DNA of 64,000 bases from Octopus vulgaris (Eukaryota): the NCBI GenBank assembly GCA_951406725.2, contig OX597839.1, positions 10,106,001-10,170,000 on the forward strand, read 5' to 3'. The notes under the pieces are model-generated. The model did no database searches. It worked only from the letters and a program-made list of their open reading frames with translations, and had not been told where the DNA came from. Positions 12,113 through 43,804 of this stretch are shown here, piece by piece; within the stretch, counting starts at the first letter, position 1; every line of letters begins with the position of its first letter. A program made the translations under genes and the position numbers.

Positions 12113-12158
<46 letters not shown>

Positions 12159-12434: not shown

Positions 12435-12465
<31 letters not shown>

Positions 12466-12470
12466 GTATA

Positions 12471-12512
<42 letters not shown>

Positions 12513-12658: not shown

Positions 12659-12709
<51 letters not shown>

Positions 12710-12809
12710 GAAATTTGATTTAATACTAAATTTGGAGTTGTACTCCCTATTATTATTATTATTGATATTATTATTATTATTATTATATATGTATGTATGT
12801 GTGTATATG

Positions 12810-12867
<58 letters not shown>

Positions 12868-12925
12868 TGTGTGTATATGTATATATATGTGTGTGTGTGT
12901 ATATGTATATATATGTAAGTATGTT

Positions 12926-12968
<43 letters not shown>

Positions 12969-13653: not shown

Positions 13654-13684
<31 letters not shown>

Positions 13685-17751: not shown

Positions 17752-20700
17752 ATATGAAGTTAATAAAAGAAAATGGAAAAGAAATATAGTGGATACTTAA
17801 TTAATTTTATTTGTATCATGATGAAAAAGAGTAATACATCATCACACCTCACTCCTCCCTCCTCCATTCTAATTTCCATAGACCATTCAAATTTTAAATT
17901 ATAATATTCAAAAATTCTCATGCTAACTTATCCCAAATTTATTCAATAATCTATAATATTTATTTCATTCTTAAATGGAATATACATATATTCCACTATT
18001 ATACACTTATAACCATTATAATTACCCTTTTGTTTTCAATAATTTACTTCATCAGCCTCTATTTATATTTTTTCCCCATGTAACCCCTAGTTTTTAAAAA
18101 AATACTATTGCTATGACTTTTTATCTTTTGTTTTCTAAAATCTTAACCAACATCGACAACTATTGAAACTTTTAATCTATCTATGTATGCACCTAAAGAA
18201 CTCCACATGTATGTGTATGTATATATATATATATATATATATATGTTTGTGTGTATGTCTCCAGACACACATCTATTTATATACACCCACACATATACAA
18301 ACATATTAATTTCTGTGTAGCTGTGATTTTGTGCATATTTGCTTGTGTAAACCTCTGTTTGGTAAAATAAATGAAAATCTAATTTTGTGTTTTATTCAGT
18401 GGACACCTGAAGGAAGGCGTTTAGTAACTGGTGCTTCCAGTGGGGAGTTCACTCTGTGGAATGGTCTTACTTTCAATTTTGAAACCATCCTTCAGGTAAG
18501 GAAAAGACGTTTTATGCTACTACCCCCCCCCCACACACACACACTCTACTACTACTACAACAATTGTTAGCCATATCAGCTTGCTATATTGCTGGGCCAT
18601 TTGATGTCAAGTTGCATGCGCATACACACGCATAGGTGAGGGTTGGCAGTAGGAAAGGCATCTGTCTGTAGGAAAAATCTGCCTCAAAAAAGCTCCATCT
18701 GACCAATGTACGCATGGAAATCTGGATGTTAAATGATATTATACGAAACAAGCATTTTTGCCACATAGTGGAATTGAACCGGAAACCATGTGGTTGGAAA
18801 GCAAACTTCTTAATCACACAGCTTTACCTGTACCTATATTGTCACAGAAAAAAAATGGGACAGTGATTATGTCAAGAATACTTTTCATCATTAGGTTAAC
18901 TATGTGAAGTCCCCCTCATCAAATACTCTCCATAAGGAGACCTAGTAGCCCCCTTGATGTTGATATGGTCCAGGAAGGAATGGAAATGCTTTGTTCTTTG
19001 ATCTTTCCCTTCAGTTTCACAGAATATAGTTTACTGTTTGTATTTAAACCATACACAGTCCTCTTTTTTTTGAAGATTTTCTGTGTTAACCTTTTAACAT
19101 TCAGATATTACTCTGTCAAATATAATGCTTATTTATTCAAAATGTTTTCACTCAATCCTGCATTGTCTTGTAAGCTTCAAAATTTCAACAATGCAGTTAT
19201 TTTTAGACTGACATTGTAGGGTAAGTGTAAGAGACCAGACTTGCTTTGTTTGAACATAAATCAGATAGAATATTTGGGCTGGACATGGCGAGTTTAAATG
19301 TTAAGGGATTAAAACCAAGCTGAATGGTCACAGCTGGGATGTTTTCCATCATAATAGGGGCTGCTGGATCAGGACTGTATTGGGACTACTATTAGAGCAT
19401 TTTCCTTTCTTAATGCATATGCAGATATCCAAATGTATGAAAATTAACCCACTTTCATCATGTAGAACGTGTATGTATATATGTATATATGATGTCTTAC
19501 ACTGGTGGTTCTCAACTTCATCCACATGACCCTTGGTGGGGATGAGGTCCATATAAGATTGTTAAAATTCATGTTATAAATTGCTTATACTTCTATTATA
19601 CACAAAATATTTTAATCTTTTTCATACAAGTCCTAATAGTATTTAATGAAAATACAGTATGATTTTTTTTTTATATACATTGAATGGCTATGGTAGTCCA
19701 TTAGAATGAACCAGGAATCAAAGGGGTCTGTAGGCAAAAAATGATTGAGAACTACTGTTTTAGACTATATCTGTATGTTTGTATGTATATATCTGTGTAT
19801 GTGTGTAATTGCATAATTATGGAATCTTCCCTTTCTTCTTTGTTACTAGGCACATGATACATCAGTGCGTGCCATGGTGTGGAGTCACAGCGACACTTGG
19901 ATGGTTACTGCAGATCATGCTGGTTATATAAAGTACTGGCAATCTAACATGAATAATGTAAAGATGTTTCAGGGCCATAAGGAACCAGTTCGAGGTATCA
20001 GGTACGCTACACGGAGTCCACAACTGGCCTGGGCAGGCAGTAGTAGGAACGCTCTTACCTTCATTTCTGAAATTATTGGCACCATCTTCTGTGCCTTTTT
20101 TAATGTTGTTGCAGTTTATTTAACCATTACTAGATCTCAGGGTTCTTCTGTTGATGAAAAACTATTAATGTATGGTGAAGACATCCTAGATTCTGGCTAA
20201 AGTTTGTGAGTTACTGTAGCAATTTGGATTTTGTCTGTTTGGTCCAACTGTTCAGATAGCATGTGTGTTTAATAACCTTGAGTTTACTCTTACATGCTCC
20301 TCTGATTTGGTTGACATACTGGGTCCAGTCTGGTCTGGTTACTGTTTGGACATTGCAAATTTATGGGTTGCTGGATCTGAATGATGGTCACTGCTACATG
20401 TTCATGGATCATTGGGCCCGGATATAGTAGCGGTGGCCTCTGCTACATGTCTGGATTACTGGGCCTGAATGTTGCATAGGTGGTCATTGCTTCATGTTTA
20501 TGGATCAGTAGGCCTGAATGTGGTAGTGGTGGTCACTCATATATTTATCGATCATTATACCTGAACATGGTGGTGACAGTGGTCATTACAACAAGTTTAG
20601 AGTGAGGCCGTTATCTCCAGGTGTAGTTGCTGGTGTGATGTAATGACTTGCGACATGTCTTGGGTATTTAAAAACTTGCAGGGCCCATTCCTCTTCAGTT

Positions 20701-23700
20701 GGCTTCTTATGAGGTGAAAGTAGGTGAGAAAAATGAGCGACATCTTTCTCTTTTTCCTACCCTCTTTCATCTCATGAAATCTACTCCAATACCAGACTGG
20801 TAATTTATTTATCAACTCTGAAAGGACAAAAAGCAAAGTTAACATTGATTGAATTTGAAATCAGAGTACAGAAAGCGGGAATAAAAATTGCAAAGCAATA
20901 AACTATACATAAATGTATCACTGGATCTGAATGTAATGGTGATGGTAACGTCAGCTACTGGTTCTTGATATGGCATTGTAGCTGGCCTACAATATTTTCT
21001 TTTATTTTGCCACAGTCATTAGGCTGCAGCCGTGCTCGGGCACCACCTTGAGGAATTTTAGTTGAACTAATCGACCCCAGTATTTATTTTTTTTTTTAAG
21101 CCCGGTGCTAACTCTACCGGTCTCTTTTGCTGAACCATAAGGTACAAGAACATAAACAAACCGACACTGGTTATCAAACAGCGGTGGGGGACAGACACAA
21201 AGATACACACATGCACACATATACAATGGGCTTCTTTCAGTTTCTACTAAATTGGCTTTTGTTGGCCCAAGGTTATAATAGGAGACACTTGCCCAAGGTG
21301 CCATGCAGTGGGACTGAACTCATTGCCATGTGGTTGGGAAGCAAACTTCTTACCACACAGCTATGTCTGCATCTTTATTCTTTCATTCCTTAGTCTATTA
21401 AGACTGATGCAGTGTTTTCTTTCATATTCTGACACTCATCAGCATTTAATATCCACTTTTCCATGCTTGCATGGGCCAGGTGGGATTTGTTTGGGGAAGT
21501 GAGTTTTTTTTAAAGACCTGAATGCCCATCCTCTTAACCAATTTTTGTTTCCAAGCAAGAAAATATTTCTCATGGCCAGGCATCTTTTTCACAGAAGACT
21601 AGAAGCAAACATTGCTTGTATGCTCATTTACAACCACCATGCGATGTCATGACTAGGGTGCACACACACACACACACACATTTACGAAAGCCCACTACTA
21701 TATGGGCTTTCATGGTTTCCTTCTATCCACAAAGCTAAATTTTTGAGGGCTAAATCTATTTAATTTAAATGTTACCAGCCCTGTCACATATATATGTTGG
21801 TTCTGCAAGGAGATTATTATTATTATGATGTCTTAGTTTAACTCTTTCGTTACCAACCTGGCTGAAACTGGCACTGGCTCTGAGTACAAATGTCTTGTTT
21901 TCATAAGTTTTGAATCAAAATCTTCCACTAAACCGTAGTCACAATTTATGTTCCTAACACTACCTAAATGATAACTAAGTTATTTTACTAAATTCTTTGT
22001 TTTATTTAAAGTAATTGAGCGAAACACAGAGTATCTCAAAATAAATACAGTAACAAATGGGTTAATGTCTGTGGAATAGTCAGGCAGTTAAACTATTATA
22101 CGAGGTAGGCCAATGGTTCTCAACGGGGTCCATATAACTCGGGGGAAGGGGGTCCATGTAAAATTTAAAAATTAAATGCAATAAAATTGGTTATATTTCT
22201 ACAATACACAAAATATTTCAATGTCTTAAATACAATTCCTAATAATCAGTTATAAAGATATTTACTCTTTTACTTGTTTCAGTCAATTTGACTGTGGCCA
22301 TGCTGGAGCACCACATTTAGTTGAACAAATCGACCCCAGGACTTATTCTTTGTAAGCCTAGTACTTGCTCCATTGGTCTCTTTTGCCAAACCGCTAGGTT
22401 ACGGGGACGTAAACACCAGCATCGGTTGTCAAGTGATGTGGGGGGGGGGGGCAAACAAACACACACACACACACACACATGTATATATATATATATACAT
22501 ATACACGACGGGCTTCTTTCAGTTTCTGTCTACCAAATCCACTCACAAGGCTTTGGTCGGCCTGAGGCTATAGTAGAAGACACTTGCTCAAGGTGCCACG
22601 CAGAGGGATTGAACCCGGAACTATGTGGTTGGTAAGCAAGCTACTTACCGCACAGCCACTATAGGATTTTTGAAACATTGAATGACTGTGGGGTCCAGTA
22701 GAGTAAAATAGGAATCGAAGGGGTCCATAGGTAAAAAATGTTCGAGAACCACTCAATCTGTCCCCATAATTCATAAAGCAATTTTGTAGTGTAGATTCTG
22801 CCCAAAGATTACATTAAATTTACAAAGTGTTTGTGTATGTTCAGCACCTTACACTTTAATACAATGAGTAGGTAGTTCTATTGATTGAACAACTGGAACA
22901 TACACCAAAACTGATGTATAACCCACCCATCATAGAAAGTAGATTATTTTCTAAAGATAAAATAACTGTTTAACTATTGTGAGTGTTAAAACTGAAATAG
23001 GGATCTATGCTGTTCTTTTGGGTAACTTATTTACTATATTGAAAAAGCACAATTCTCCATTCCTTAGAATTTGAAATTTGGGATGTCTGAATCCTCTCTA
23101 GGTTATTGTCTTATTTTCGAAACTATGTTATTTTTATTCCATTTCAATTAAACTGCACTGGCATTAATTATGTATATGTATTTTTTTTTTTAATTCAATT
23201 TAATCTTCATCTTTATTTACTAATTAAATAAAGTTGTTTTTTTTTTTCTTCTCCTCTTAACCCTAACCCTCTTCCATTTGCTCAACTAATAAACTTAAAA
23301 TCTGGGTTTGGCCCCTATTCCATGCTTTGCCATAATACCACTTCAATAAAGCTGCTTCCTTTCTCTGTTATCAATAAAGTTGATATCGTATATATTTGTG
23401 TGTATGTGTGTGTGTATATATATATATTTGTGTATATATCCCTTTCAAAGATGATGCGTTATAGATGTGCAAAGAATTTGGTTGCCTTTATGATTTAGAT
23501 TTATATATTTCTTGTAAGAAAGTTTTCTAATTTCATTAGATATGCAATGTGTGTGTTTATGTTTATCTCTCTGTATGTGTCTGTCTGTGTGTATTTGTGT
23601 TTTAACACAATACATTAAACTAACCTACTTTTAATGATTTATCAAATTAGGTCATGTTATATTTTGCCTTATTTAATTCTTCAATAGAGATGAAAAGATA

Positions 23701-26700
23701 TTGTGTTGTTTATTCACATCTGGGTCTAAACCAGAGTGATCCTTGTTGTGAGTTTCTGGGAACTAATCAGGTGTCTCTGCTATTCTATTAAGAGTTATTT
23801 CTTTGGCTTTACAATCTTATTTTTTTCATTGTCTAGTTTCCATTTTCTCTGTTAATCACATCGAACTCCATTACTTTACTGAAAAGAATTTTAGCAAGAC
23901 CTCTCTGCTTAGTTATATAAAGCAGCATAGCATTCTCACATAACTTTGCTTGTGTATTGTTGGTCATACAAGATACCATTCCCCCACTTTACACCAAAAA
24001 TTGGTTAAATGTTTCTTCTTAATCACAAGAGAGTACCGTTGAATTTTAATATCAGTTAGATTAATTTAAGTAAACTATATCATATACAGTATTATATACT
24101 GATCAGTTAACTACTAGCCAAGCTAATTTTAACTATACCAAGTGCATCATATTATATTACAGTTTTCTCTGCTCACATAAATAAACTAGTCTTTAAACTA
24201 TTGGATATTATTAGTAGTTGCGATATGAAGTTAGATTACCCCAGGTTTATTGGACTTAACATAAAGTTTATGTAATATAAGTTTGTTTCAACTGTATTTA
24301 CTAAATTTTGTTATTAATTTAAACAAGATTCTCTAGATTTATCTAAGTGTAAGATTATTTTGATCAGTGAAAACTGGTACTCTTTCAGTTAGATGATGAG
24401 TGTTCCAGTTGGTGTGATCAGTGGAACAGCCTGCTTGTGAAATTATTGTGCAAGTGGTTGAACACATGTACCGTTAATGCAGTTCTCAGGCGGATTTAGC
24501 ATGACCCAGAATGTGGCAAGGCCGACCCTTTGAAATACAGGTACTACTCGTTTTTGCCAGCTGAGTGGACTAAAGTGTTTTGCTCAAGGGCACAATGCAA
24601 TATCAGGTATCAAACTCATGACCTTACATTCATGAGCTAAATACCTTGACCACTCAGCCACATGTATAGAGCAGGGAAATAACTCAGAAAAAACAAGGAT
24701 TTAAATGTTAATTTGGTTTTTGAGTAGGAGGAATGTTTGATAGTTGCAAACTCTTACACCTCATCCATTTTCAACTGTTTCTTACTTTCTTGACGTTGTA
24801 AGACTGGTCAGCGAAGGGTGTTTTGTGATTTTGTTGTTTGTATGGGACAAATCACAAAAATACCCAGAAAATACACAAGTTAACTTAAAAGATATTAGTT
24901 ATCTTGTACAAAATTGGTTGACAGATAATAGTTGTCTTATAGAGAATTGACTGAGAGGTGCTAGTTGTTATCTTGTAGATAATAACTGCTTGGTAAATGG
25001 CAATTATAGAATGGAATATTTATATTCTATATGTGTTGTCTTCTCTTGACTACATTCACCCCAAAGATTGGTTGTAATGCTGTAAGACTTAGATAAATGT
25101 CTCTTTATTCAAAGTAGTGAATATTGTTTGTCTTTAAATCTCTGAACTCTTTTAACTACAAGGGAGTTGGTTTCTATGTTGCTCTTATTTAATTTGCATC
25201 TTAGTCAATATCAGTTATATTCAATATCAGTTATATTGCTACCTAATATGTCTGTTGTCACTCATGTCTGTTGTCAGAGTTGAACTTGTTTTCAGCCTTG
25301 TAGACTGTGCTGTCCAAGAACATGACACAAACTGTTGTGATGTGCATAAGCAATAGTCCATTACTTTGCATCTTGTTTTGAGTTATGGTTGGTCAGAATT
25401 TTCTCTGTAAACATGTTCAGCTATGTCTTTCTGCTGGTCTTATATCTTGTATTGTTTCTATTTCAAATACTAATGGTACAGGAGAAGGTTGATTCATAAG
25501 CTACAACATTCACAGAAATAGATCAGTCTTCATTTTTTTTTGTTTTTGTTTTTTTGTTCCCCTCTGAATATTTTAGGGAATTCAATGATTACATTTTTTT
25601 AAAAATAGGTCACATGTCTGATCCTTCTGACATAACTCTTTTTCTTTTATTCTTCCACAAAATTTTATCTATATTTTGCTCTGCAAATTTCTGAATCTCT
25701 GTTAGTGGCATGGCCCTTAGTATTGATTCCCAACTTAAGTTGCCAATTTAACTTTGAGGAAAAAAAAAAAAGAAAAGGAATGAATGTCAACTCTTCAACT
25801 TGCTATTTTTTTTAATATATATAATACTTTTTATAATACATCTTTGATCTTGTCCCAGAATAGAATCTCCAGGAAAACAATCCCATTTAATCCCTTATGT
25901 TTAACCCTTTAACATTTAGGTTACTCTGACAAATAATATTAAGCTTATTTTATCATATTGTTTTGAATTAATCATGCATTATATCATAGCTTGAAGATTT
26001 TGATGATCTAATTGTATATTTTTATAATGACATTGTAGTGTAGGTATGAGAGGTTGGATCTGGCTAGTTTGAACATTAAACAAGTAGGATATTTTGGCTG
26101 GATATGGCCAGTTTAAATGCTAAAGAGTTGAACTGGGTATGTGATATGACAACAGTGGTGATGATGTTGAGGAATAAGTTTTATATTTCATTGTCCTGAA
26201 CTTTAAGTTTTTACTGAACTGAAACAGGTGGATACTCTTGACACATTTCTTAGACATTTTAAGAAACCTTCATCTTATTTGAACTAAGAGTTGCTAATCG
26301 ATGTTTGCATATCCTGCTGCTTGTTTTTTTTCCTTTTTTTTTTCTTTGGCTTTTCATCTTTACCCTGCCCTTGTCCCAGTGGGCATCTTATTAATGATAA
26401 AGAGGAATATATATATCCACGTGAAACTGAAATTGCTCTTTCAATAAACACATTCGTTCATCCTGTCAGAATGATTACCTGTCTTACTCTGTATGTTTGT
26501 GCATGTTCGCATACACCTATAAATATTATATATATATAATATCGACTTTTGAAAAAGTCTATAAATGCAAAAAATACGAATTCAATGAAAATGTTAAAAA
26601 AAAAAAAAAATTTGATTTAATAAATATAAAAAACAACAACCAAATCAATGTTAATGAAAAGGGATATTATTGGCCTGTTTACACTTTCTGTTTCTATGGC

Positions 26701-27162
26701 AACAACTTAGTATCACTGGCAACAGTATCAGTAGCCGAACAATTTGTATATATATTCATATACATACATATATATATATATATCAATAAAATAAAATTTT
26801 TGCCCCTCTCCCACATGATTATTATGATTGATTATTATTATTATTTGTAAGATTAAATAAAAATAAGAAAAATAAATAAATACCTTTTTTCTTACGTAAT
26901 AAAGATAAGATTTCTTAATAAAAATAATTTGGTAAAAGTAAGCCATTTGTATCTGTTGTCTTTATTTTCACGACAACTCTCATACGTGTATGACTAACTT
27001 GTCCATCTGTTTCCTCTTTAGAAAGGGTTTGTCTGGCAGGTTTCAGGGGAGTTGTTTCTGGTGAGGGAGGTAATAACACACATACCATTACCTTCTTTTT
27101 ATAAACGATCTCAAAAAGGATGTTTAACTGCTTTCTCCATCTGCAAGTGTAGATATCTCTGC

Positions 27163-27193
<31 letters not shown>

Positions 27194-30100
27194 ATAATTC
27201 TTCATATATTTGGGTATATCTCTTCCTGTATAATATACATCTGTTGGTGTATATTATTTCGATATGCATGTATCTATATCTGTGTGTATATATATATAAT
27301 ATGGTTTTTGGGGTCAGTTCCTCTGTCCAGCACCTTGACTATGTATCTTTCATAATCTCATACTGACCAAAGCTTTGTGAATGAATTTTTGTAAAAGAAA
27401 ACTGAACGAAGTTTGTGTGAATGTATTTATGTATATATCTATTTTCTATGTATATGGATGATGACTGCTGTGTAAAGAAGTGCCGATCTCTAATTGTAGG
27501 GAAACTTGTTGGTCAGATTCTACAGTATCGGTTGCAGTCAGTAGTATAGTGTAGCAATAACAGCAATTGTTGGTGTCATGGTAAGGCGAGCTGGCAGAAA
27601 CATTAGCACGCTGGGTGAAATGCTTAGCGGTATTTCCTCTGTTGTTACGTTCTGAGTTCAAATTCCTCCGAGGTCGACTTTGCCTTTCATCCTTTCAGGG
27701 TCGATAAATTAAGTACCAGTTATGCACTGGGTTCGATGTAATCGACTTAATACCTATGTCTGTCCTTGTTTGTCCCCTCTATGTTTAGCCCCTTGTGGGT
27801 AATAAAGAAATAGGTAATACAAGTTAGTGTGGGTGTGTAAAGAGTTGATGGGGGAGAAAGATCACTGAACAATTGCTGAACTTCAAGGTAAGGTTGCTTA
27901 GTAGGCAATGTATTTTGAGAAGTTCTTTGTTCAGATGGGGCTACTTTATTTGAAGGTGTGAATTGGTGATTGTGTGAAGGAAAAGTGAGAAATGATGAGT
28001 AGGTGAAAGGTAGATGAAATGAGGTAGTTAGAAAAGCCAATTCATGCTATTCAGTTCAGATCTGTTCTTTTATCTTTTACTTGTTTCAACCATTAGACTG
28101 TGGCCATGCTGGGGCACCACCTTAAAGAACTTCTTTTCGTCGAACGAATTGACCTCAGTACTTATTTTAAAACCTGGTACTTATTCTATTGATTCTTTTG
28201 TTGAACTGCTAAGTTATGGTGATGTAAACAAACCATCACCTGTTATCAAGCAGCAGTGAGGGGGACACACACACATAGATATACATTTGATGGGCTTCTT
28301 TCTTATTTCTGTCTATCAAATTCACTCACAAGGCTTTGGTCAGCCCGTGGCTGTAGTAGAAGTCACATGCCCAAGGTGCCATGCAGTGGGACTGAACCTG
28401 GAACCATGTGGTTGTGAAGCAAGCTTCTTACCCCACAGCCATGCCTCTTGTTGATTTCTGGTTTATATTACTGAATGAGAATCATCCTTAATTATTAAGT
28501 TACTAATATTTTGGTCAGTGGCTAAAGTGGACATTCCAACTTAATGGTATGGTTACAACCTTTATGAAGATGTTTCTTGATCAACGGAGTACATGTATGT
28601 GCAAGTAAGGTGTTCCTTAACCCGTTAGCTTTCAGATTATTCTATCAAATGTAATGCTTATTTATTCCAATTTTTTTGAATTAGTCATGCATTATCCCAT
28701 AGGTTTTGATGATGGAATAACTTATTTTTAGATCGACATTGTAGGATAGGTGTGTGGGGCCAGACCCAGCCAGTTTGAACATAAAACAGAATATTTTGGC
28801 TGGATATGGTCAGTTGAAACACTAAAAGGTTAATCTGAGTGTGGGGTTTCTGGATTGTGCTGCCAAAATAGTGACCCTTCATTTATGGCATTTTACCTAA
28901 TACATGACATATGCACCTAGACATATTTATGTCCCTGGTAGGGCTGTTTGTTAGCACCAACATGTTGGTCTCAAGAGTTGTTGTTTTTTTTGGTTAAAAT
29001 TCAGTGTAAAGAGGGTCTAGAGTGGCTTAGACATTTATCTAGCCCCTCCTTGTGGATGGCTTTTTGGTGGTAGTCTTAAGCTGTGACAGTTTAACCTTTG
29101 AATATTCAGATTACTGTCAAAAGCAGTGCTTGTTTATTCACATTGTTTTGCATTAATCATACAGTATCTTTTAGCTACAAGATTTTGATGATGTGATTGC
29201 TTAGTTTTAGAATGACATTGTAGGGTAAGGTATGAGAGGTCAAATGAGGCCAGTTTGAACAAAAAACAGGTAGAATATGTAGATAGGTGTGTGGGGCCAG
29301 ACCTGGCCAGTTTGAACTTAAAACAGAATATTTTGGCTGGATATGGTCAGTTGAAACACTAAAAGGTTAATCTGAGTGTGGGGTTTCTGGATTGTGCTGG
29401 GTTTAAATGCTAAAGGGTTACAGAAGCAGATGTTCTTGTGGGCATTCTGCCATTTTATGTAAAGGAATCTGTTTGGGATGAGTGAAAGATGTATGTAAGT
29501 GACTTAGTCAGTCACCTTGCTACACTTATCACAAACGCATGCAAACTAATTTTGGATGTAGATGCCTGTTGTAAAGAAGGATTAGGAGTCAAAGGTGTTG
29601 AATGTTAGACTTCCAAAACATTCATGTGTGTTATTGCAAGCAGGGTGAGACACTGGTTCCTACTGGTAGTTCAGAGGTTGACTTTGCAGATGTAATGGTT
29701 GAAATATGCTCCCTCCTCTTTCTCTTCTCCTTTGAGACAGCTGGTGCTTTGACACCACTGCATCTTGTTGGCCAGAAGTACCTCGGGTTAATGAATCTAA
29801 TGAGCCAATAGTCTTATTTATAACTTCAGCGAACAAAACTTTGCTGATCCATGATGATCTCTGCTAACCAACAACAAATTGAGACACACACTCACACACA
29901 TATTATTAGCGATAGAAGCAGTATTAGTACTGAATAGCAATTTGCACATCCTACATAATGTGGTATATGTACAGATTAATTTATATCTTAATGTAATAGA
30001 TTTTCTGTAATAATTTGCATATGTTACTTATAGCGAGGTCATTACCAGTACCGCCTGACTGGGCACGTAAAAGCACCCACTACACTCTCGGAGTGGTTGG

Positions 30101-30893
30101 CGTTAGGAAGGGCATCCAGCTGTAGAAACTCTGCCAGATCAAGACTGGAGCCTGGTACAGCCATCTGGTTCGCCAGCCCACAGTCAAACTGTCCAACCCA
30201 TGCTAGCATGGAAAGCGGACGTTAAACGACGATGATGATAATACTCAGGACACTCCTAGAGTATTATAATACAATGAAATAAACAACCGACACAATGTAG
30301 CTTGAAGTTAGTCCTCTTAAGTTTCGATCTTTTCATTTCTTCAGGAATAGCCCTAAGTTGGATAAGAAATGTTATTCCTAAAGAAATTACAAAAGGGAAA
30401 CTTAAGTCGAATAAGCGTTATGTGATGACACCTATTATTTATTTTTATTGCATATGTGTCTCTTTTATTCTTTTACTTGTTTCAGTCATTTGACTGTGGC
30501 CATGCTGGAGCACTGCCTTTAGTCGAGCAAATTGACCCCAGGACTTATTCTTTGTAAGCCTAGTACTTATTCTATTGGGCTCTTTTGCCGAACTGCTAAG
30601 TTATGGGAAGTAAACACACCAGCATCGGTTGTCAAGCGTTGTTGGAGGGACAAACACAGATACACAAGTATATACACACATACATATATACATATACATA
30701 TATATGACAGGCTTCTTTTAGTTTCTGTCTACCAAATCCACTCACAAGGCTTTGGTCGGCCCAAGGCTATAGTAGAAGACACTTGCCCGAGGTACCACGC
30801 AGTGGGACCGAACCTGGAACCATGTGGTTGGTAAGCAAGCAACTTACCACACAGCCACTCCTATGCTTATATATATATATGTGTGTATAAAAA

Positions 30894-30931
<38 letters not shown>

Positions 30932-33900
30932 AAAAAATTGTTTTAATATTCACTTTTCCATGCTTGCATGGGTTGGACAGAATTTGTTGAGACAGATTTT
31001 CTAGAATTGGATGCCCTTCCTGTTTCCAAGAAAGGTAATTTCCCTCTGCTCAGACATGTTTTCATGGGAGATTGGAAATGAACACCACTTGCATGTTCAG
31101 TCACTTACAACTATCATGTGATAAACAATCACTACAAGGTGATAGTAATACATGCACATACATCCACAGGAGGCTTCTTTCAGTTTCTGTTTGACCAAAT
31201 CAACTCACAAGACGTGGGCTATTGTAGAAGACACTTGCCCAAAGTGCCATGCAGTGGGACTGAACCTGAGATCATGGAGTTGGAAAGTAAACTTCTTATC
31301 ACAGCCGTGTCTGTATCCATATATATCATCATCATTAGGGTGGCGAGCTGGCAGAATCATTAGCACGCTGGGCAAAATGCTTAGTGGTATTTTGTCTGCC
31401 GTTACGTTCTAAGTTCAAATTCTGCCGAGGTCAACGTTGCCCTTCATCCTTTCGGGGTCATCATCATCATCGTTTAACGTCCGTTTTCCGTGCTTGCAAG
31501 GGTTAGACAGTTTGACCGGGGTCTAGGAAGTCAGGAGGCTGCACCAGGCTCCAGTCTGATCTGGCAGAATTTCTACAGCTGGATGCCCTTCCTAACACCA
31601 ACCACTCCGTGAGTGTAGTGGGTGCTTTTTACGTGCCGATTAAATAAATACCAGTTATGTACTGGGGTTGATGTAATCGACTTAATCCCTTTGTCTGTCC
31701 TTGTTTGTCCCCTCTATGTTTAGCCCCATGTGGGCAATAAAGAAATACATATATATCATCATTGTTTAACATCCATCTTCCATGCATGCTTGGGTAGGAT
31801 GAATGACAGGAGCAGGCCAGGTGGAAAAAGTACTGTGTCTATTTTGGCAGGGATTTTATGGCTGGATTCCTTTCTTAACACCAACCGCTCCACAGAGTGG
31901 ACTCAGTGCTTTCTATGTGGCACTAGCACAGGCGAAGTTAGTTTTGTGAAGAGTTTTACAGCAGGATACCCTTCCAAATGCCAACCACATTACAGTGTGG
32001 ATTGGATGCTTTTAATATGGCACTGGCAGGGTAACCAAGTGACTCACAAGACAAGGAGTTATGAGAGGGGCAGGGCATTTGTGGAGGGGAACTTGTGTGA
32101 GAGGATGAAAGGTTAGAGTGTGACAAGGAGACAGAGACACAGAAGCAGGTATCTTGCCACAACAGAGGGGGAATAAGAGGTGATCCAGTATCAAATGATG
32201 AAAGGTTAGAGTGTAACAGAGAAGTAGAGAGGCAGAAATAGGTGTCTTGTTATAGAGGAGGTACATGGTTACCCAGCGAGAGAGAGAGGCTAGAAACAAG
32301 TGTGCTGATGTAAAGGAAATACTTGGTTATCTAGCCTGAGGTGAAACGAGGAGAGAGAGAGAGTGTGACCAAAGGGAGAGAGAGAATAGGAAACAGCAAA
32401 AGTGTAAGAGAGAGTAAAAGAAAAATGGTGTAGTGCTAGGGTTTACTCACAAGTAACAAAAATATGAGTGTAGAACCTGGTTAGAAAAACAGGTTGGGGG
32501 TGTGGGGAGCAGGGCAGTGAGGGCAAGGAAGGAGATTGGAAAACAATCATAATTTATGAAGAGGAATTGTGAGGAAGAGAAAGATGCAGATAGAAGAGGA
32601 GTTGTAGTTCAATTTCTTAGGGCAGGGTGGGTGAGAAGTGTGTTGTTACATGTGGATGGGACCCAACTCTTCTAGCACTCAGTTTCATGGATGGGTCTTC
32701 CCTAGGACCTCATATCACCAAACGTCTTGCTCCACTGTCATTTCCTCTATGAGCCCCCAACATCCTAAGATCAGTCTGCACCACTTTGCTAGATCAGAAT
32801 AGAGCTTGGTGCAGCCTCCTGGCTTACCAGTCCCCACTCAAACCATTCAACCCATGCCAGCATGGAAAACGGACATTAAATGATGATGATGAAGAAATAA
32901 CCAATTATCCATCCATTTTCTCCACTCACTATTCCTGGGAGAGTTGTTGGGGTAGCATCCCCGGGTGCTTCTTCCATAAGTCCCTATCAAAAGCAGTTGT
33001 CATTACACATTCTTGCTGGATTCTCAAGCATGACCAGCTGAGATTAGTTATTATCCAGCCATTTCATTCTTGGTCTCTCCAGATTGAGCCACTATTTCTC
33101 TGCATTGAGCAATCACAGCTCCGTTGCTATGGACTTGTGATAAGAATGTTGCGGGGAAGGATCACAAGACTTATTCTTCAAACCAATCCAACTTGCAGGA
33201 GACCTGGGAGTATACCTCAATTGCATCATCATCATCATCATCATCATTTAGTGTCCGCTTTCCATGCTAGCATGATTTGGACGGTTCAACTGGGGTCTGG
33301 GAAGCCAGAAGGCTGCACCAGGCCCAGTCTGATCTGGCAATGTTTCTACGGCTGGATGCCCTTCCTAATGCCAACCACTTCGTGAGTGTAGTGGGTGCTT
33401 TTTACGTGCTAGACGGGGTTGGCAAATGGCCACGGTTGGATGTGCTTTTTATGTGCCACCGGCACAGGGGCGAGGCGAGGCTGGCAACGGCCATAATCGG
33501 ATGGTGCTTTTTACGTGCCACCGGCACTGGTATCACAGCTACAATTTCCATTGATGTTGATCAATTTTGATTTTGATTCTGATTCTGCAGTGGTTGGAAC
33601 ATTTAAAGAAAAATTAAACTTTTGACTGACCTGAAAAATACATTTTTGGAAAAATGGCACTTGGACTAGATATATTAAAGAGGTTATTCAATATGCATAG
33701 CCTCTTTAATATATCTATATTTAGTAGTGCACCTGCACCCTGTATATAGGTGCATGTGTATGTGTAATCTATTATATAAAATCTGTTCTGTCTGTATGTG
33801 TGTCTTCTAGGATCTCGGGCATCCTCCATCTGATTGCGCTCAGATTTGATATGTGGATACCGACGGTATCAGGGCGTGTATAAGTCTTGAAAAAAATTGC

Positions 33901-34145
33901 AAAAATCGATTTCAGGTGAGAATGAGATCGATAAAGCCGTGGGAACGTGGATTTGCACACGCAAGTACATCAGTTGTTGCGATTGATACTATGCGTACAC
34001 GAGAAAAATGCAGGGTGTCTCCGATTTAGGTTAACTCAGTGTTTCTCAAAGGGGAGGCCTATGGGACGGTTGGACAAGTTGTTTTGAGAAAATTTGGTTT
34101 AAATGTTTGACAACTCAGCACCGTCCATTGGATGGGGGTGTTTTG

Positions 34146-34191
<46 letters not shown>

Positions 34192-34745
34192 TACATGTGT
34201 ATGTATGTATGTGTGTGTATATATATATATACATATATATAAACACACACACATACATATCAATAATATGATTTAAGAACTAACATTGAATTCAGGTTAA
34301 CAAACTTTATATATTCACGCTTTTACACTTTATTACATATAAATGATACCATGGCTTTCAAATGTCAAAAAAAAAAAACACCAGGTAAAAATCATATATA
34401 AAAAATATAAAATACACAGGACCTGCTCAGAACACATATTCTGAGCATGTTCTGTGTATTTTGTATTGTTTTTATATATGATTTTTACCTGGTGTTAGTA
34501 TTTTTTTTTTTGATATTTGAAAGTCATGGTATCATTTATATGTAATGAAGTGTAGAAGCGTGGATATATAAAATTCATTAACCTGAATTCAATATTTGTT
34601 CTTATATTATCTGTATGTTTCTGGCTCAATATCATTTGAGCACTTCTCTCCTGCAGTCCTATATATATATATATATATATATCAGTCCTATATATATATA
34701 TCCATCTTTTTCAATCAAAAGAAATGTAATTTATAATTTACTTCT

Positions 34746-34796
<51 letters not shown>

Positions 34797-37700
34797 TATA
34801 TATATATATCATCATCATCGTTTAACTTCCGCTTTCCATGCTAGCATGGGTTGGACATATATATATATGCATATGTATTATCTTATCTTTCCAAGAAGAT
34901 GTAGGTCTGTGCAGATATCTCATATACATACATTTTTTACTCTCAAACCATTATCGTACATTTTGTTTCTGATAAGACAGATAGGCTTAACCAAGTTCTT
35001 TCATTTTCTTTGTACAAATTCTGATGGCGGTTGGGTATGTTGTTTATCCAACAAGGGTCTATAAAATATTTTATAGTCATGTTCTTCACTCCAAATTTCT
35101 TTCTATGTTTTATATCAATAATGTCGTGGTATATGAAATGTGTCAATAAAATGTCTTATGATGTTTTAGTTGTGTCACTCTTCTGAATTCAGATACCACT
35201 CGGGTTATCTTTGTAGTTAAACTGTTTGTTGAGTTGATACATGTACCAGTTATGTACAGGGGGTTGATATCATACTCTCTCCCAGGAATTTTGTGGTCTT
35301 GTTTCTTTGTTAGAAATTGTCATTATTGAATTTAAACTTTCGTCCTACCTGGGTGGATAAAAATAATATAGCATTTACGTACTGGTCATCAGTTTAATTG
35401 ACTAACGTCTCACTTCAGAAACTGCGGTCCTTGTGCCTAAATTAAAAATTATTATAATTTGCAGAAGGTGGCAACCTGGCAGAATTGGTGGCATGCCAGA
35501 CAACATGCTTGGCGGTATTTCATCTATCCTTATGTTTTGAGTTTAATTTCCACCAAAGTTGACTTTGCCTTTCATCCTTTCAGGGTTGATAAATTAAGCA
35601 CCAGTCAAACACTTTGTTCCTTCTTGAGCCATGCCTGGCTCATAAGGGCCAAATTCCCTGTTTCCTTGGCGTATAGGTTCCCCACCTGGACGGGACGCCG
35701 GTCCGTCACAGGTGAGCTGCAAGATGCAGGTGGAAAGAGAGGGAGAAAATTGTGGTGAAAGAGTTAGCAGAAATTCGCCATTACCTTCTGCCAGAGCCGT
35801 GTGGAGCTTAGGTGTTTCGTTCATAAGCACACACATCACCTGGTATGACATTCGAACCCACGATCCCTCAACTGCGACTCCATTGCTCTAACCACTAGGC
35901 CATGTGCCTCCACAGTCAAACACTGGAGTCAGTGTAATGAATTTGTCCCCCACCACATATGTTTCAAAGCAAGCAGAACCTCAGAAGTAGTAAATATCCA
36001 AGTGTGGTGTATACCACAAGCTACTCATCAGGCCAAGGGTATCTTGATTAAATGAAGCTTACTCTATTGCAAGGAGGTACATGTTAAAACATGAAAGATT
36101 TGATCAGAATGTGGATCACATTCTGATCGAATCTTCTATGTGTTAACATGTACTTCCTTATTTTTTTAAGCCTTGTACCTATTCTATCAGTCTCTTTGCC
36201 AAACTGCTAAGTTATGGGAATGTAAACACACCAATTCGATCAGACTGTGGATCACATTCTGATTGAATTTCCTGTGTGTTAACATGTAGCTCCTTGCAAT
36301 ACAGTAAGCTTCATTTAATCAAGATACCCTTGGCCTGATGAGTAGCTTTTGGTATACACCTCACTGGGATATTTAGCACTACCAAGGTTCTGCTGGCTTT
36401 GAAACATATGTAGCCCAGATCTTACCTACTCCATTCCGTAACACTTGTATTCTTATTTGCATACCTTGGCAACCCTGGTTGCCTACCGTGAAATACTAAA
36501 AATAAAAAAAATTCCAGCTTATTGTACTTCAATATGAAAAAATCCATAACCTTCTACTTCAATAAGCCACTATTGTTCTTGAAAGTTGTTTTTTATATTT
36601 ACTATGGATTGCTTGAAGCTAACTTTCTTCCTACACCTCGATCCTTGGATCTTACATATATATATATATATGACAGGCTTCTTGGCGTTTCCATCTACCA
36701 AATTCACTCACAAGGCCTCAAGGTTGGCCCAAGGCTATAGTAGAAGACATTTTCCCAAGGTGCCATACAGTGAGACTGAACCTGGAACCATGTGGTTGGG
36801 AAGTAAACATCTTACTACACAGCTGCACTTGTGACCAATTGCATGCACATTCACACACATATTTGCTGCGTAGTTGAGGATCTGATGTGTCTGTCCAAGT
36901 CAATTTTTAAAATATCTGATGCTGTTAATAGGTCATCTACACTCATTTCTCTTTTTCTTAGTGATTACCATTTTTTTTGTTTTGTTTACATTCATATAAA
37001 CTGTAATTGTGTTTATGTGTCTGTATAGACACCTTCCCTGTGTGTATGTATATATGGGCATAAGAAAACACAAATAGTAAATATATTCATTTATAGGGAC
37101 TCACACACTGATACAAAATGTACCCCTCCTTTTTTTATTATGATAGGGTGTGTTTTGAGGGAGATTTGACTGCTATTTCTAGCCAATCAAGAAGTAACTG
37201 ATTCAGAAAAGTAATCAGCATCATCATCATCGTATAACGTCCGCTTTCCATGCTAGCATGGGTTGGACGATTTTGACTGAGGACTGGCGAGCCAGATGGC
37301 TGCATCAGGCTCCAATCTTGATCTGGCAGAGTTTCTACAGCTGGATACCCTTCCTAACGCCAACCACTCCGAAGTGACTGATTCAGAAAAGTAGTCCTGC
37401 TTGCCAAACAATCTTAGAGATATTTAAGGCAGTCAGCCCTATGTAAAAGCTTGCTAAGGTATACTGTGTTAAATTGTTTCACATTGACATTAGGAGTAGT
37501 GTTGTCTTCATACAAAGAATAGACTAGTATTTTTGATGTTTTGTTGTGCTTTGTTACGTTGAGAGGGGTCTTAATTTTCATCCCTTTGTTTACCGGAATA
37601 ACTGGTCAAAATCCTGTCTTTGTGGTGATTTGTCTTTGTGGGGTTACCACTCGGGTATTCTCTTGGCTATTTCATTGTTGGCCAGAGCTAGACCATCATT

Positions 37701-40700
37701 ATCTTTTATCTTTTACTTGTTTCAGTCACATTGAATTTTTAGTCAAATGATTTGACCTCGGTACTTTTACTTTTTAAGCCTTGTACTTATTCTATCAATC
37801 TCCTTTGCTGAACCACTAAATTACAGGGGCATAAACACACTAGCACCAGTTAGCAAGTGGTGGTGACACACATACACACGATAGGCTTCTTTCAGTTTCT
37901 CTTTACCAATTCCACTCACAAGGCTTTGGTCAGCCTGAGGCTATAGTAAAAGACACTTGCCCAAGATGCCATGCTGTGGGACCGGATCTAGAACCATGTG
38001 GTTGGGAAGCAAGTTTCTTACTACACATCCATAAGTTACGGGGATGTAAACAAACCAGCATCGGTTGTCAAGCGATGTTGGGGGACAAACACAGGCACAC
38101 AAATGTATACACACACACACATATATATGATGGACATCTTTCAGTTTCCATCTACCAAATCCACTCACAAGGCTTTGGTTGGCCCATGGCTATAGTAGAA
38201 GACACTTGCCCAAGGTGCCACACAGTGGGACTGAACCTGGAACCATGTGGTTGGTTAGCAAGTTAATTAGCACACAGCTGCTCCTACGCCTACAATACAC
38301 AAAATATTTTAATCTCTTTTAATACAATTCTTAATACTTTTTTAGCCATCGTCCATATTTGTTATACCTTCAGAACTACAAGTAATGCAAATCATTTGCT
38401 TTGAATTAAATTTTGCTGAACATATGCAAAAACTTACACACATACATGCACTGGGGTCTTGATTTGGAAGTCCTTGGGTTCTTTAAGAGTGTGGAACCAC
38501 CTTTTAGCCACTATTGTTCCTTACTCTAACCCAGAGTAGTAGCACCTGCCAGGGTCCTAGCAATATGTTAATTAGCTTGTTATGGAAGAAACCCCAAGCA
38601 CAAACCCTCACTGCTTTATGAATATCTTGGGAAAGGAAAGTCTGAGGGAGTCAACCCTGGCAGCAGATTAAGGAGTGGAGTGTTGGCAGTCCGGTACCCT
38701 CTTTGATACCCTTCTGGCAACTCCAGAGTAGTAGTAGAAGTTCTACAGCCTTGTAAAACAATTCATTTAGGAAGAGGCCACACCAATGTAAAACCTAAAG
38801 CTTGCTGGTCATTGCAACTGTCTTAGCTCACAGATCCACTCTGGTTAAATCTTCAAGGCTAAAGGGTGGAATCGGATTGCATGGACTGACCTAAGTGCTG
38901 TAAGAGAAACCTTGCAGTGTCAGGGATTGGAATACATATCTACTTGGGGATGTGTCACTCTTCTTTATGTTCTGGTACAAAGAAACTGCCCTCATCATAT
39001 ATAGCTTACATTTTATCAATGGCATTTTCCAGTGATACACTTTAGATGGTGTAGATTTGGGCTATCTTTTATCTTCTTTCAGTCATTTGACTGTGGCCAT
39101 GCTGGGGCACTGCCCTGAAGAATTTTTTTAGTTAACATATCGATGACAGTACTTATTCTATCTTCCTCTTGCTGTACCGCTAAGTTATGGGGACGTAAAC
39201 ACACCAACACCCATTGTCAAGCGATGGTGCTAGAGACAAACACACATATATATATGATCGGCTTCTTTCAGTTTCGACTACCAAATCAACTCACAAAACC
39301 CGTGGCTATAGTAGGAGACATTTGTCCAAGGTGCCGCGCAGCGGGACTGAACCCAGAACATGTGGTTGGGAAGCAAGCTTCTTACCACACAGTCACGCCT
39401 TCGCCTATATATTCGAATTTGTAAAAACAAATACCAGAGGAGGGGAGAAGAGTTTCGGATAATTCACGCACTTGCTCAAAACTGGATATTTTATCATAAA
39501 ATCTAATATAAATACGATTCAGATTCTGTATGATGTGGAGGGGAAAAAATTGACGATAGGTTCAGATAATTCACACAATGACTTTATCTCCACTTTCGTT
39601 TCCCCATTTTATAAAATATATATAATGAAATTAATGTATACAGTGATCAGGTGCACCTCAGGTGATGGTGTGTGTGAATTATCGCGCCTCCCCACCCAAC
39701 TTTTCTTTTCCCATCAAATTCCAATATAATCATAATCAACATCTGAAACTTGGGTGTTGAAAATTCTATTTAAAAATGTCCATTTTTCAGAAAGTTATGA
39801 GAAGCAAAATCTTGGAGTAGTGTGGGATATTGCATACGTATATCTGTAGTTACGCTCGCTTACAATACAGCGTTAATCAGAAGTACTGAAATAAACTTAG
39901 ATATTAGAAAGCCTTAGCTGGGATAAAGAACTATATAAGAATGTAAACCTATTTCTTCCATGCTTTTGATGTACGGAAAAAAAGGAGTGCGGAGACTCCT
40001 GATATTCCCGTTCCTCAGAGAAGACATTTCTGCTCTAATCAGAAGAGTAGAAATTTAAAAGAAAGGAATAGTCGATTATATTGAACCCCGTACTTTTATT
40101 TTATCGATCTTAAAAGGACGAAAGGCAAATATGACCTCGGCGGCATTTGAATTTAGAAAGAGCTGCCCAGCGCTCTCACCGCCCTTTATATAGGGTGTAA
40201 CTTCGGTATAAGTACCGGATACATTTCAAGAAAGTGTTTTTTTATTTTTTATATATGATGGGGTTAGGGTTAGGGGTGGGAGAAAAGGGTTTCTGTTATC
40301 TTCAGAAATGTAAACAAAGCCACTTCCGGTACTTATACCGAAGGATCGCCTTATATAGATAGATATAATGGATGGGAAATATACGAGTGGAGTAAGCTAA
40401 TACAAATTAAAGAGGAATAACTAAACAGAAGAAAAGGACTTTTTCCTTGTTTTCTCCACACGCACATGGGTAGCCATAATTTGACGTCATTTGTATTCTT
40501 CACTTCCTGTCCTGTAAGGTTATCTCCCTTGCCTTCTCTATACTTCCTCTCTTCACTTCTTTCTCGGTGTCTTCCTCTCTTTATCCCCCCTCTCCCTCTT
40601 TACTATACTATCCACCTCTATTTTCCTCTCCCTCCGTTCCGTTCTGCCTCTGTACACGCGCTCTCCCTATATTCTCTCACTCTCTATTAAAAATTTGTCT

Positions 40701-41643
40701 TCGCTCCCTCCTTGCTCTGTCTGTCTGTCCCTCTCTCATTCTGCTTTTGTCGTTGTTTTATATCTGTTATGTTCACACTAAAAAATAAAAAGTTTATGGA
40801 GGAATATATGCGATGATTACACTAGAATTCGGCCGACTGTATAATTTTGTTATATTTGCTGAAGGAAAACAAACCCAAATAGTTTGAAACGTGTTTAGGT
40901 TCTTCTTCTTCTTCTTCTTCTTCTTCTTCTTCTTCTTCTTCTTCTTCTTCTTTCCTTTCCCTTTCTTTCTTTTCCTTTCTTTTCTTTTCCTTTCTTTCTT
41001 TTCTTTCCTTCCTTTCCTTTCTTTGTTTCTTTCTTTCTCCTCCTCCTCTGGGTTCAGTCCCACTGTGCGGCACCTTGGGCAAGTGCCTTCTACTATGATT
41101 TTAGGCTGACCAAAGTCTTGTGACGGGATTTGGTAGATGGAAACTGAAAGAAGCATGAAATACATTTATAATGCTGCGTGTGTGTGTGTGTCTTCTACTG
41201 TCATACCATAGCAGTTCAGCAAAAGCAGACCAATAGAATAAGTACCAGGCTTCAGAAAAACATAAGTTCTGGAGTCGATTCGTTTGACTAAAAATTCTTC
41301 ATCAGACTGCATGGCTAATGACTAATCGCTGAAACAAGTAAAAGATAAAAGGCAAAAATACATTTCAGATGGTGCAGATTACAACTCTGTCAGAATTTAA
41401 TGGGTGGGGTTGGGGACTTCTGAGGCTATGGTGATGAGCTTTGGAAAATTCACGCGTGTCAGCTTTGTTTCTTCATAGCTTTCAGTAAAATGGTGTTTTT
41501 TTTTTAGGATTGGCTGGGTGGTAAGTAGCTTGCTTACGAACCGCATGGTTCCGGCTTCAGTCCCACTGCGTGGCACCTTGGGCCGACCAAAACCTTGTGA
41601 GTGGATTTGGTAGATGGAAACTGAAAGAAGCCCGTCGTATATA

Positions 41644-41674
<31 letters not shown>

Positions 41675-43194
41675 TTGTGCGTGTGTGTGTCCCAACATCA
41701 CTTGACATCGATGCTGGTGTGTTTACGTCCCCTTAACTTAGCAGTTCAGCATAAGAGACTGATAGAATAAGTACTAAGCTTACAAAGAATAAGTCCTGGG
41801 GTCGATTTGCTCGACTAAAGGCGGTGCTCCAGCATGGCCGCACTCAAAATGACTGAAAAGAATAAAAGAGAAAAGAATAATTGTAACCTAGATATCAAAA
41901 ACAAAATTTCATCGGAAAATATACAAGAAAGTTCTGAGGAAACAGTTAGGTGAAGTTGTCAGCTAAACACTGGTTATGCTCTCGTATATACTTACATACA
42001 AACACATGTACAGAGAGAGAAAGAGGGAGAGGGGGTGATTCAGTCTATCCAAGATTATTAATACTAACTACTTGAATAAATAAAAAAAAAAAGAAAAAGA
42101 AAACTAGTTGGAATTGAATTCATAACTGTAAAGCTGGTGGCATGTAAAAAGCACCCACTACACTCTCGGAGTGGTTGGCATTAGGAAGGGCATCCAGCTG
42201 TAGAAACTCTGCCAGATCAAGATTGGAGCCTGGTGCAGCCATCTGGTTCGTTAGTCCTCAGTCAAATCGTACAACCCATGTTAGCATGGAAAGCGAGAGC
42301 TAAACGATGATGAGGTGAGCTGGCAGAATCGTTAGCACACCGGGCGAAATGCTTATCGGTATTTCGTCTGCCGCTACGTTCTGAGTTCAAATTCTGCCGA
42401 GGTCGACTTTGCCTTTCATCCTTTCGGGGTCGATTAAATAAGTACCAGTTACGTACTGGGGTCGATATAATCGACTTAATCTGTTTGTCTGTCATTGTTT
42501 GTCCTCTCTGTGTTTAGCCCCTTGTGGGTAGTAAAGAAAAAGATGATGATGATGGTGATGAAAGGTACCAAACTTGACGGTTTTACTGCCATGATCATCT
42601 CTGTAACATCTTTGCTTATAATGAGATGTTAGAAATATTTTTCAAGACCTGCTCATCACAACAGAATTAAAATCCTAATGTAAAAAGCATTGCTGTTGGG
42701 TGCTGGTGCCATGTAAAAAGTATTCAGTACAATCTGTAAAGTGGTCAGTGCAGCCCCTGGCCTTGCCAATTTCTGTCAAGTGGTCCAAACCATGCCAGCG
42801 TAGAAAATGGACTTCAAATATTGATGACTAGCACTATGACCCCGCAACGCCGGGTCATAGTGCTAGTGCATGCATATACAGCTGCATGCGTGCACACATA
42901 CACGTGAGTACTGTCCAAATCTCCGACCAATCACATACAGCTAGCTGGCATTCAATTGGTGTATCAAGTTTCGGGCATTTTGATTGGGTTTTGGATAGAA
43001 AATTCACAAAAAGTCACTTCTATTGATTTTTTAATGGCTTTGGGGGGGTTACTGGGGAAATGTAAAGATGTGCACGACCACCCTTGGACGGTTTTGAATG
43101 ACCATAGAAAGTGTGAGCCCTCTAACTGAAAAATTGTGGATTTGTATAAAGGACACACACGCAGACAATTTGCCGTTTATATATATAGAGATGA

Positions 43195-43239
<45 letters not shown>

Positions 43240-43255
43240 CTCTCTCTCTCTCTCA

Positions 43256-43319
<64 letters not shown>

Positions 43320-43760
43320 GCCTCTCTCATGAGCTGTGATGATTTTGCCTCTCCTAACGGCATTACCAAGGTAAGTGGAGCAGACAAGTTATTGGAGCTA
43401 CACAATTCAACAGATTGTTATTATTCAAACTGCTAGAAATAACAACCAAATTTCTCAGAGAATCATTACATGGAAGTATACATTGGATAATCTAATCAGG
43501 TGGTGGGGGATGATATGATGGTTATGACTGGAATACCTTTCTGTATATGTTTGCTTTTTTTAGGGCCAACCTAGGGCTAAATAACAACACCTGTGTTCAA
43601 TACATGGTCCCTGTTCACTGTAACCTGATTATATCACCACCTCATAGAATGATGACCAGTATTCAGTTATTTCTTTACCTTTTATTTCAAATATTGCAAG
43701 ATCTTTTCTTCTGCCTTTTGACCAGCATTCTCTCCCCTACACATATGTTGGTATCTTGCC

Positions 43761-43804
<44 letters not shown>

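Follow-up and report, generated by a model that had tools for sequence, protein, structure and literature searches.

The gene for WDR33, the reader of the AAUAAA polyadenylation signal, gives rise in human to an early-ending isoform, and we here describe the equivalent region of the WDR33 gene of Octopus vulgaris, which lies in a window of 64,000 nt (contig OX597839.1, positions 10,106,001 to 10,170,000, forward strand; coordinates below are those of the window). The human isoform, WDR33v2 or V2, retains intron 6 and carries a 118-residue tail with a membrane segment; it is found in the endoplasmic reticulum (ER), does not bind CPSF and regulates STING, and its co-occurrence with STING and NF-kB has been reported (PMC11019558). 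The same source describes homologues in Drosophila and Nematostella and none in C. elegans, and its species table contains no mollusc. Human intron 6 measures 1,668 nt and is inefficiently spliced, and in HeLa cells V2 is lowered by knockdown of CFIm25, with V1 unchanged, and is itself unchanged by knockdown of FIP1 or CstF64 (PMC11445923). A further isoform, V3, arises from intron 7, the large one of 36,284 nt (PMC11445923), and the statement in an initial annotation of the octopus locus that V2 and V3 share an intron is thus correct in placing the V2 tail in intron 6 but not in placing V3 there. Feedback on CSTF3 involves a large intron and a weak donor (PMC3708835), and WDR33 is a PCF11-attenuated gene in human and zebrafish, the intron not being named in the accessible text (bioRxiv 10.1101/491514). 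Database records furthermore hold mammalian isoforms of 326 residues (208 + 118), in which the switch to the tail falls at the same codon as in octopus, and a WDR33 isoform X2 of the limpet Patella vulgata (RefSeq XP_050414809.1, P0063) of 300 residues, with a 54-residue tail at the same junction and a hydropathy value KD19 of 1.7. In our literature search, which covered partly accessible texts, no report of a cephalopod WDR33v2 form or of WDR33 self-regulation was found, and likewise no relevant report on STING in cephalopods or octopus.

We conclude, with a probability of roughly 0.7, that the feature described here is real and that the octopus gene forms a cephalopod WDR33v2-type early-ending transcript with a long untranslated region (UTR) and a predicted tail anchor. 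The initial annotation had proposed an early end in the octopus counterpart of the human V2 intron, and this notion is supported by a fork of assembled contigs at the donor, by the tails of relatives and by the shared junction. What is new is the cephalopod member of a type already known in human, fly and sea anemone and annotated in a limpet record, and as a single locus it is a confirmation rather than a discovery.

The WDR33 gene and its fifth intron

The initial annotation correctly named the gene, since the exon at 19850-20001 matches solved WDR33 chains with an E-value of 4e-25. Our model has 13 coding exons and 12 coding introns, the latter placed by protein alignments, and encodes about 1,019 residues from the ATG at 5707, of which the first few may derive from an upstream exon. 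The further claim that the exon-5 donor opens the largest intron of the gene, then put at 30.5 kb, agrees with a length of 30,479 bp for intron 5 against 9,150 bp for the runner-up. The elements at this junction are:

19850..20001, plus strand: WDR33 coding exon 5, 152 nt, single copy, counterpart of human exon 6, containing the end of WD repeat 2
20002..50480, plus strand: intron 5, 30,479 bp, equivalent to human intron 6, with its junction shared with the mammalian 208+118-residue isoform cluster
50481..50578, plus strand: coding exon 6, joined by splicing to give full-length WDR33

Human exon 6 presumably has the same length of 152 nt as coding exon 5.

The exon-5 donor and the read-through tail

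Since intron 5 is in phase 2, a donor of the form GTAA, GTAG or GTGA would place a stop codon directly after the exon, which GTAC does not, and indeed each of the three other phase-2 introns of the gene has an immediate stop, intron 5 alone being open (n = 4). The donor (gtacgc) had been described as weak, and it does lack both +4A and +6T, but it matches the consensus at 7 of 9 positions, and its predicted pairing with U1 (-7.1 kcal/mol) is tied by one and undercut in strength by three of the other 11 donors, so that it is not the weakest donor of the gene. RNA folding at the donor revealed no structure beyond that of shuffled sequences (z 0.26). Overlooked so far was the read-through frame itself, and since this carries a predicted membrane helix the product would be a V2-like protein:

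19999..20007, plus strand: phase-2 donor CAG/GTACGC, without +4A and hence with no in-frame stop after it
20000..20200, plus strand: read-through frame, a 66-codon intron-encoded C-terminal tail ending with TAA at 20198-20200; predicted V2-like protein of about 317 residues
20000..20062, plus strand: conserved first 21 tail codons, 20 of 21 residues identical to the database protein P0001; peptide or RNA element
20072..20128, plus strand: predicted transmembrane helix, mean KD19 2.23, followed by 23 mostly polar or acidic residues

Judged by hydropathy only, the tail (KD19 2.23) is comparable to those of the database proteins P0001 (2.01) and P0214 (2.07) and lies above most mammalian tails (1.86), and the hydrophobic stretch together with the polar or acidic end suggests the layout of a tail anchor. 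Among the read-throughs of the 12 introns it is the only one with a KD19 of at least 1.8, the other 11 reaching at most 39 codons and a KD of at most 1.42, and 1.9% of 46,700 intronic start points equal or exceed it. The stretch 20002-20800 is single copy in the genome. A 49-bp tandem repeat of 3.2 copies (20385-20537) is located within this single-copy start of the inferred UTR.

Intronic AATAAA clusters

Two sense AATAAA clusters in intron 5 are the densest of the window when both strands are considered, and here the initial annotation was accurate, as it was in calling 23.1-26.9 kb repeat-poor and U-rich: repeats cover 14% of this part against 49% of the rest of intron 5, by a rough screen against 390 kb of genome, and the T fraction is 0.39 against 0.32. 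The first 3.1 kb of the interval it had marked (20002..26925) are however not repeat-poor, with a cover of 42%, and 22700-24350 has short repeat matches only. The features of this part are:

20201..26920, plus strand: inferred 3' UTR, about 6.7 kb, tiled by contigs of runs X1, X5, X6 and X10
20992-21379 and 22240-22664: high-copy repeats in the inferred UTR, from the repeat screen
23227..23378, plus strand: AATAAA cluster 1, 4 well-spaced hexamers amid T-rich sequence, followed by a GU-rich stretch
25760-25771: genomic A12 run, a possible internal oligo-dT priming site
26596..26610, plus strand: genomic A15 run, a possible internal oligo-dT priming site
26785..26922, plus strand: AATAAA cluster 2, 7 hexamers in partly A-rich, low-complexity sequence

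In 23100-26925 there are 14 sense and 6 antisense hexamers, and the sense density lies above that of composition-matched sequence, since dinucleotide and trinucleotide shuffles have means of 4.3 and 4.8 and reached 14 in 0 and 1 of 1000 cases, respectively. Local shuffles of 300 nt give P<=0.001 for each cluster, the windows for the cluster statistics having been picked after the clusters had been seen. Elsewhere the motif occurs 0.72 times per kb in the remaining 23.6 kb of intron 5 and 0.87 times per kb in the other introns, and in a genome sample of 39 stretches of 10 kb (780 strand-kb) at least 7 hexamers within 152 nt were met once, in a microsatellite, and at least 4 eleven times. The first 500 nt of intron 5 contain no sense AATAAA, and Rfam gave no matches in 19800-27300. 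Cluster 2 is likely the main end of the short transcript, the RNA contigs weakly favouring it over cluster 1, which is a candidate for a minor or conditional poly(A) site.

Past the end of the window, in extended coordinates, five sense AATAAA at 64043-64458 lie 0.66-1.1 kb after the WDR33 stop codon and are the likely normal 3' end of the gene, and a second group of six is found at 68992-69778. Intron 2 contains an AT/GT microsatellite array of 2.3 kb (11436-13765).

Assembled contigs across the intron

Part of 19850-27100 is contained in 20 of the 24 listed sequencing runs, and 14 of these are guessed to be RNA, a status inferred from run size and from the fork at the donor, none being recorded as such. 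Contigs of four runs (X1, X5, X6 and X10), which come from four studies with two organism labels and hold 57-100 million letters each against a genome of 2.8 Gb, were placed on 18300-33299. In all four a contig beginning at 19972, 30 letters before the donor, enters intron 5, and X5 has in addition a contig that ends at 20001 and whose first 394 letters, absent from the adjacent intron, we take to be spliced upstream exons. An assembly graph forking between spliced and unspliced molecules has this pattern. The contigs extend past cluster 1 in every one of the four runs, and the 32 pieces among those listed all fall within 19848-26847, that is about 6.9 kb of intron. Where X1, X10 and X6 stop, the genome-sized run X15 continues, and over 26854-27139 it has a depth of 38 while the other three contribute nothing, which is a weak hint as the stops differ and filters drop records. 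These contig ends are most simply read as a transcript that stops near cluster 2, though the hint is a weak one. Contig depths are unsuited to ranking the parts of a gene and were not used as levels; they are 8-21 in the intron, with no fall after cluster 1, and in X5 the contig of exon 5 has 46.9 and that of the intron branch 12.1. Intron 4 and the region past 27.3 kb could not serve as silent controls, since their bins are dominated by repeats.

Related tails in database proteins

A search with the tail gave one protein match among 34 candidates, namely P0001, which consists of the spliced exons 1-5 followed by the same tail in one open frame and which is identical to the window in 20/21, 9/24 and 1/21 residues along three parts of the tail. 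P0214, a member of the Sepia cluster, is a second case of spliced exons 1-5 with a related tail in one open frame, and since both are grouped with a Sepia pharaonis protein they are likely from squid or cuttlefish (decapodiforms). Exon 1 of the window is identical in 86/99 positions to a protein clustering with Sepia pharaonis PFS2, and is more distant from the proteins of this cluster than they are from one another. In neutral simulations of codons 22-45 an open and equally hydrophobic frame was kept in 7% of runs and equally mild substitutions were seen in 10%; selection on the helix is suggested, and what is conserved in the invariant first 21 codons may be an RNA element rather than a peptide. 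How many database proteins have long tails was not taken as a test, since such tails are favoured by the limits on length and by the clustering.

The CAA/CAG repeat at 5863-5915 encodes a polyglutamine run in exon 1 that is longer than in the proteins of the Sepia cluster. Four other members of that cluster (P0209, P0211, P0217 and P0218) are penultimate-exon frames sharing a brief read-through at their end, and their contigs reach 6.5 kb; they are most likely unspliced exon frames and possibly a second retained intron.

The homologous intron in other animals

A metagenome scan yielded 77 WDR33 loci. GT is present at the homologous site in 39 of them, which fall into 20 groups when clustered at 88% exon identity, or 21 with the window added; the other 38 are spliced or intronless, have the intron elsewhere, are cut or are unmatched. 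The homologous donor has +4A in 1/21 groups, compared to 29/39 control donors hand-picked from other WDR33 introns, 28 from scanned loci and 11 from the window (Fisher P 2e-7). L075/L076, with a consensus GTGAGT donor at the homologous site, were excluded by the pattern, and counting them as one group gives 2/22. Within the first 500 nt of the homologous intron, 8.2 kb in all, AATAAA occurs 45 times in sense and 18 times in antisense orientation; the control introns have 19 and 22 in 12.6 kb (P 0.013). Within this set the window stands apart from the other groups by having no hexamer in these 500 nt and by its far larger intron, 30.5 kb compared to 343-5,378 nt in the 8 loci measured whole and about 80 nt in L053, and large size is thus not conserved at the homologous site, the human intron of 1,668 nt included.

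Tails are complete in 18 groups, and of these 12 have at least 38 codons and 9 a KD of at least 1.8, whereas the introns of the octopus gene give 15% and 5% (for at least 40 codons). Five of the six short-tail groups are still without +4A and four keep sense AATAAA in the first 500 nt, and L050, with a stop at codon 2, has 6 sense and 0 antisense AATAAA, so that the AATAAA-richness of the homologous intron persists even in some groups without a tail. L002, L014 and L032 are furthermore spliced upstream and unspliced at the homologous intron, L002 ending in A10. The initial annotation had allowed for either deep conservation or convergence, and it is conservation that stands, in agreement with the homologues in Drosophila and Nematostella (PMC11019558), while a convergent origin is ruled out by the position, phase and donor type common across animals.

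Some sets of loci deserve mention in their own right. In one group (L021-L023, L038-L040, L042 and L044) a 10-codon tail is accompanied by an AATAAA at exactly +165 in 8/8 loci, which makes it a candidate for a tail-less early stop. Twelve related loci (L004, L005, L007-L012, L015, L016, L019 and L020) have a similar tail of 70-133 residues, hydrophobic in the 10 complete ones, with the first AATAAA at +287 to +310. In L045 the donor is of the consensus type and a stop follows at once; its 3.4 kb contain no AATAAA in either orientation, and its lineage seems to have lost the early end.

Proposed mechanism and alternative explanations

In the mechanism that we propose, the donor without +4A leaves the frame open for 66 codons, and at the level of contigs the graph forks there in all four runs, with one of the branches running into the intron. 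If human intron 6 is a guide, splicing would be slow and, the acceptor lying 30 kb downstream, would sometimes lose out to cleavage and polyadenylation, mainly at cluster 2 (about 26.8-26.95 kb), with cluster 1 as a minor end. The predicted product of about 317 residues would be without five WD repeats, unable to join CPSF and tail-anchored in the ER. To judge from the layout, each early end would cost one full-length WDR33 mRNA, and the gene would therefore be attenuated by construction.

Several observations weigh against the early-ending V2-type transcript. The contigs of X1, X10 and X6 stop at different points of 26140-27139 (26847, about 26776 and about 26532, respectively), and among them there is no poly(A) tail, poly(A) loose end or sharp end. 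The runs are contigs and RNA by guess, so that strand, level and ends are unreadable; the contigs of the intron branch carry 30 exon letters, one short of the bridging rule; and a further 74,596 pieces, mostly repeats by their depth profile, lie outside the 32 mentioned above. As regards the protein, T-rich introns often translate as hydrophobic sequence, translation of the early-ending form is predicted from the frame only, the last 21 tail residues are unconserved (1/21 with P0001), and selection on the helix at the protein level is not significant in the neutral simulations (P about 0.07-0.10). A UTR of 6.7 kb with repeats may moreover render the mRNA unstable or nuclear. Across animals, finally, the tail is only 1-14 codons long in 6/18 complete-tail groups, and the sequence groups are not phylogenetically independent, three of them having related tails.

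One alternative explanation is that there is no real intronic end, the contigs stemming from slowly spliced pre-mRNA or from oligo-dT priming on A-runs and the clusters being A/T-rich noise. It would account for the missing poly(A) end, for the stop of the last X6 contig just upstream of the A15 run at 26596, with an A12 run at 25760 as well, and for the clusters in so far as at least 4 hexamers together occur 1.4 times per 100 strand-kb in the genome. Internal priming could however explain X6 but not X1 or X10, since the latter two pass the A15 run. Nor does this explanation agree well with the confinement of the listed pieces to the first 6.9 kb of the intron, with the shift in repeat content and AATAAA density near 27 kb, with the conservation of the first 21 codons in likely decapodiforms, or with the fact that the homologous intron is read through and AATAAA-rich in many animals, and we regard it as quite improbable.

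A feedback brake, in which the weak donor together with the AATAAA in the intron would respond to 3'-processing activity and curtail full-length WDR33, on the model of CSTF3 and PCF11, would be compatible with the V2-type transcript but would make the hydrophobic tail a by-product or later add-on. Lineages that keep donor and signals without a tail favour such feedback, and this is what the short-tail groups and L050 display; the tails of distant animals look unrelated by eye, CSTF3 likewise combines a large intron with a weak donor (PMC3708835), and WDR33 is attenuated by PCF11 in two vertebrates (bioRxiv 10.1101/491514). On the other hand, the HeLa knockdowns of CFIm25, FIP1 and CstF64 speak against it, as does the small size of human intron 6 (PMC11445923), and long and hydrophobic tails are more frequent than in the introns of this gene. 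What has been published for human V2 is a role in regulating STING at the ER rather than feedback (PMC11019558). True feedback, with the rate of early ends responding to the level of WDR33 or CPSF, is plausible, but that a brake is what has been selected is a possibility we consider doubtful. It is rather unlikely, too, that the short protein would bind STING at the ER and tune innate immunity or autophagy as in human cells. Such a role is suggested by the layout, which is that of human V2, by the ER location and STING/NF-kB co-occurrence of the latter (PMC11019558), and by L045, a demonstration that loss of the feature is possible, as in the reported case of C. elegans. However, the octopus tail is without visible sequence likeness to the mammalian one, and whole-genome searches with the Pfam models STING_LBD and STING_TM found no convincing STING gene, PF15009 giving 0 matches and PF23417 one match over the cut-off that by our reading is a frame resembling a retroelement plus simple repeat. 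Two models are weak for split, divergent genes, and although a control search for Mab-21 succeeded, its only family match lies in one open frame, so that these searches do not establish that STING is absent. If the octopus lineage had in fact lost STING, this would bear on the function of the short isoform.

A wider notion can be put forward tentatively, and we would not bet on it: the non-consensus donor and the intronic AATAAA may form an ancient selected unit, an animal-wide self-limiting sensor of the AAUAAA reader, on which the membrane tail has been rebuilt or lost by lineage, octopods having a CSTF3-like 30-kb intron, a two-step stop and a short membrane form whose 21-residue linker, conserved in cephalopods, is kept though no STING gene was found in this genome. 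V2 would then, if this is true, function without reference to STING. Across animals the unusual donor and the end signals within the intron persist also in groups that have no membrane tail. The isoform might exist for the sake of a membrane protein related to STING or as a brake on the core polyadenylation factor, and these two reasons are thereby separable, with tail-less lineages and a cephalopod in which STING was not found as natural test cases.

Comparison with known systems

The octopus locus shares with the autoregulatory PAS1 of PCF11 the clustered intronic AATAAA in a 3'-processing gene, whereas the action of PCF11 on WDR33 is cross-regulation in vertebrates, and the accessible passages show no self-regulation by WDR33 (bioRxiv 10.1101/491514). 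The intron-3 site of CSTF3 (CstF-77) is similar in belonging to a 3'-processing factor, in an intron of about half the gene with a weak donor and a composite terminal exon, but the short forms of CSTF3 are without an apparent protein product and its feedback has been shown by perturbation, while a tail is encoded here (PMC3708835). Isoform X2 of Patella vulgata is likewise a molluscan read-through form with the same junction; its tail is however not alignable by eye, and it stems from automatic annotation that no paper found discusses. The closest counterpart is human WDR33v2 (rat NET14), from which the octopus form differs in that the intron is 30.5 kb and the largest of the gene, the large human one being intron 7, that the tail has 66 rather than 118 residues with no visible sequence likeness, and that the AATAAA clusters lie 3.2 and 6.8 kb into the intron, so that the UTR would extend over kilobases. 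For the octopus form, the poly(A) ends, the ER location and any binding to STING are putative. Nonetheless both have the same intron position and phase, a donor without +4A, a tail that follows WD repeat 2 and has a predicted membrane helix, and several downstream AATAAA, and the split between splicing and 3'-end formation in WDR33, already known, is now extended to cephalopods.

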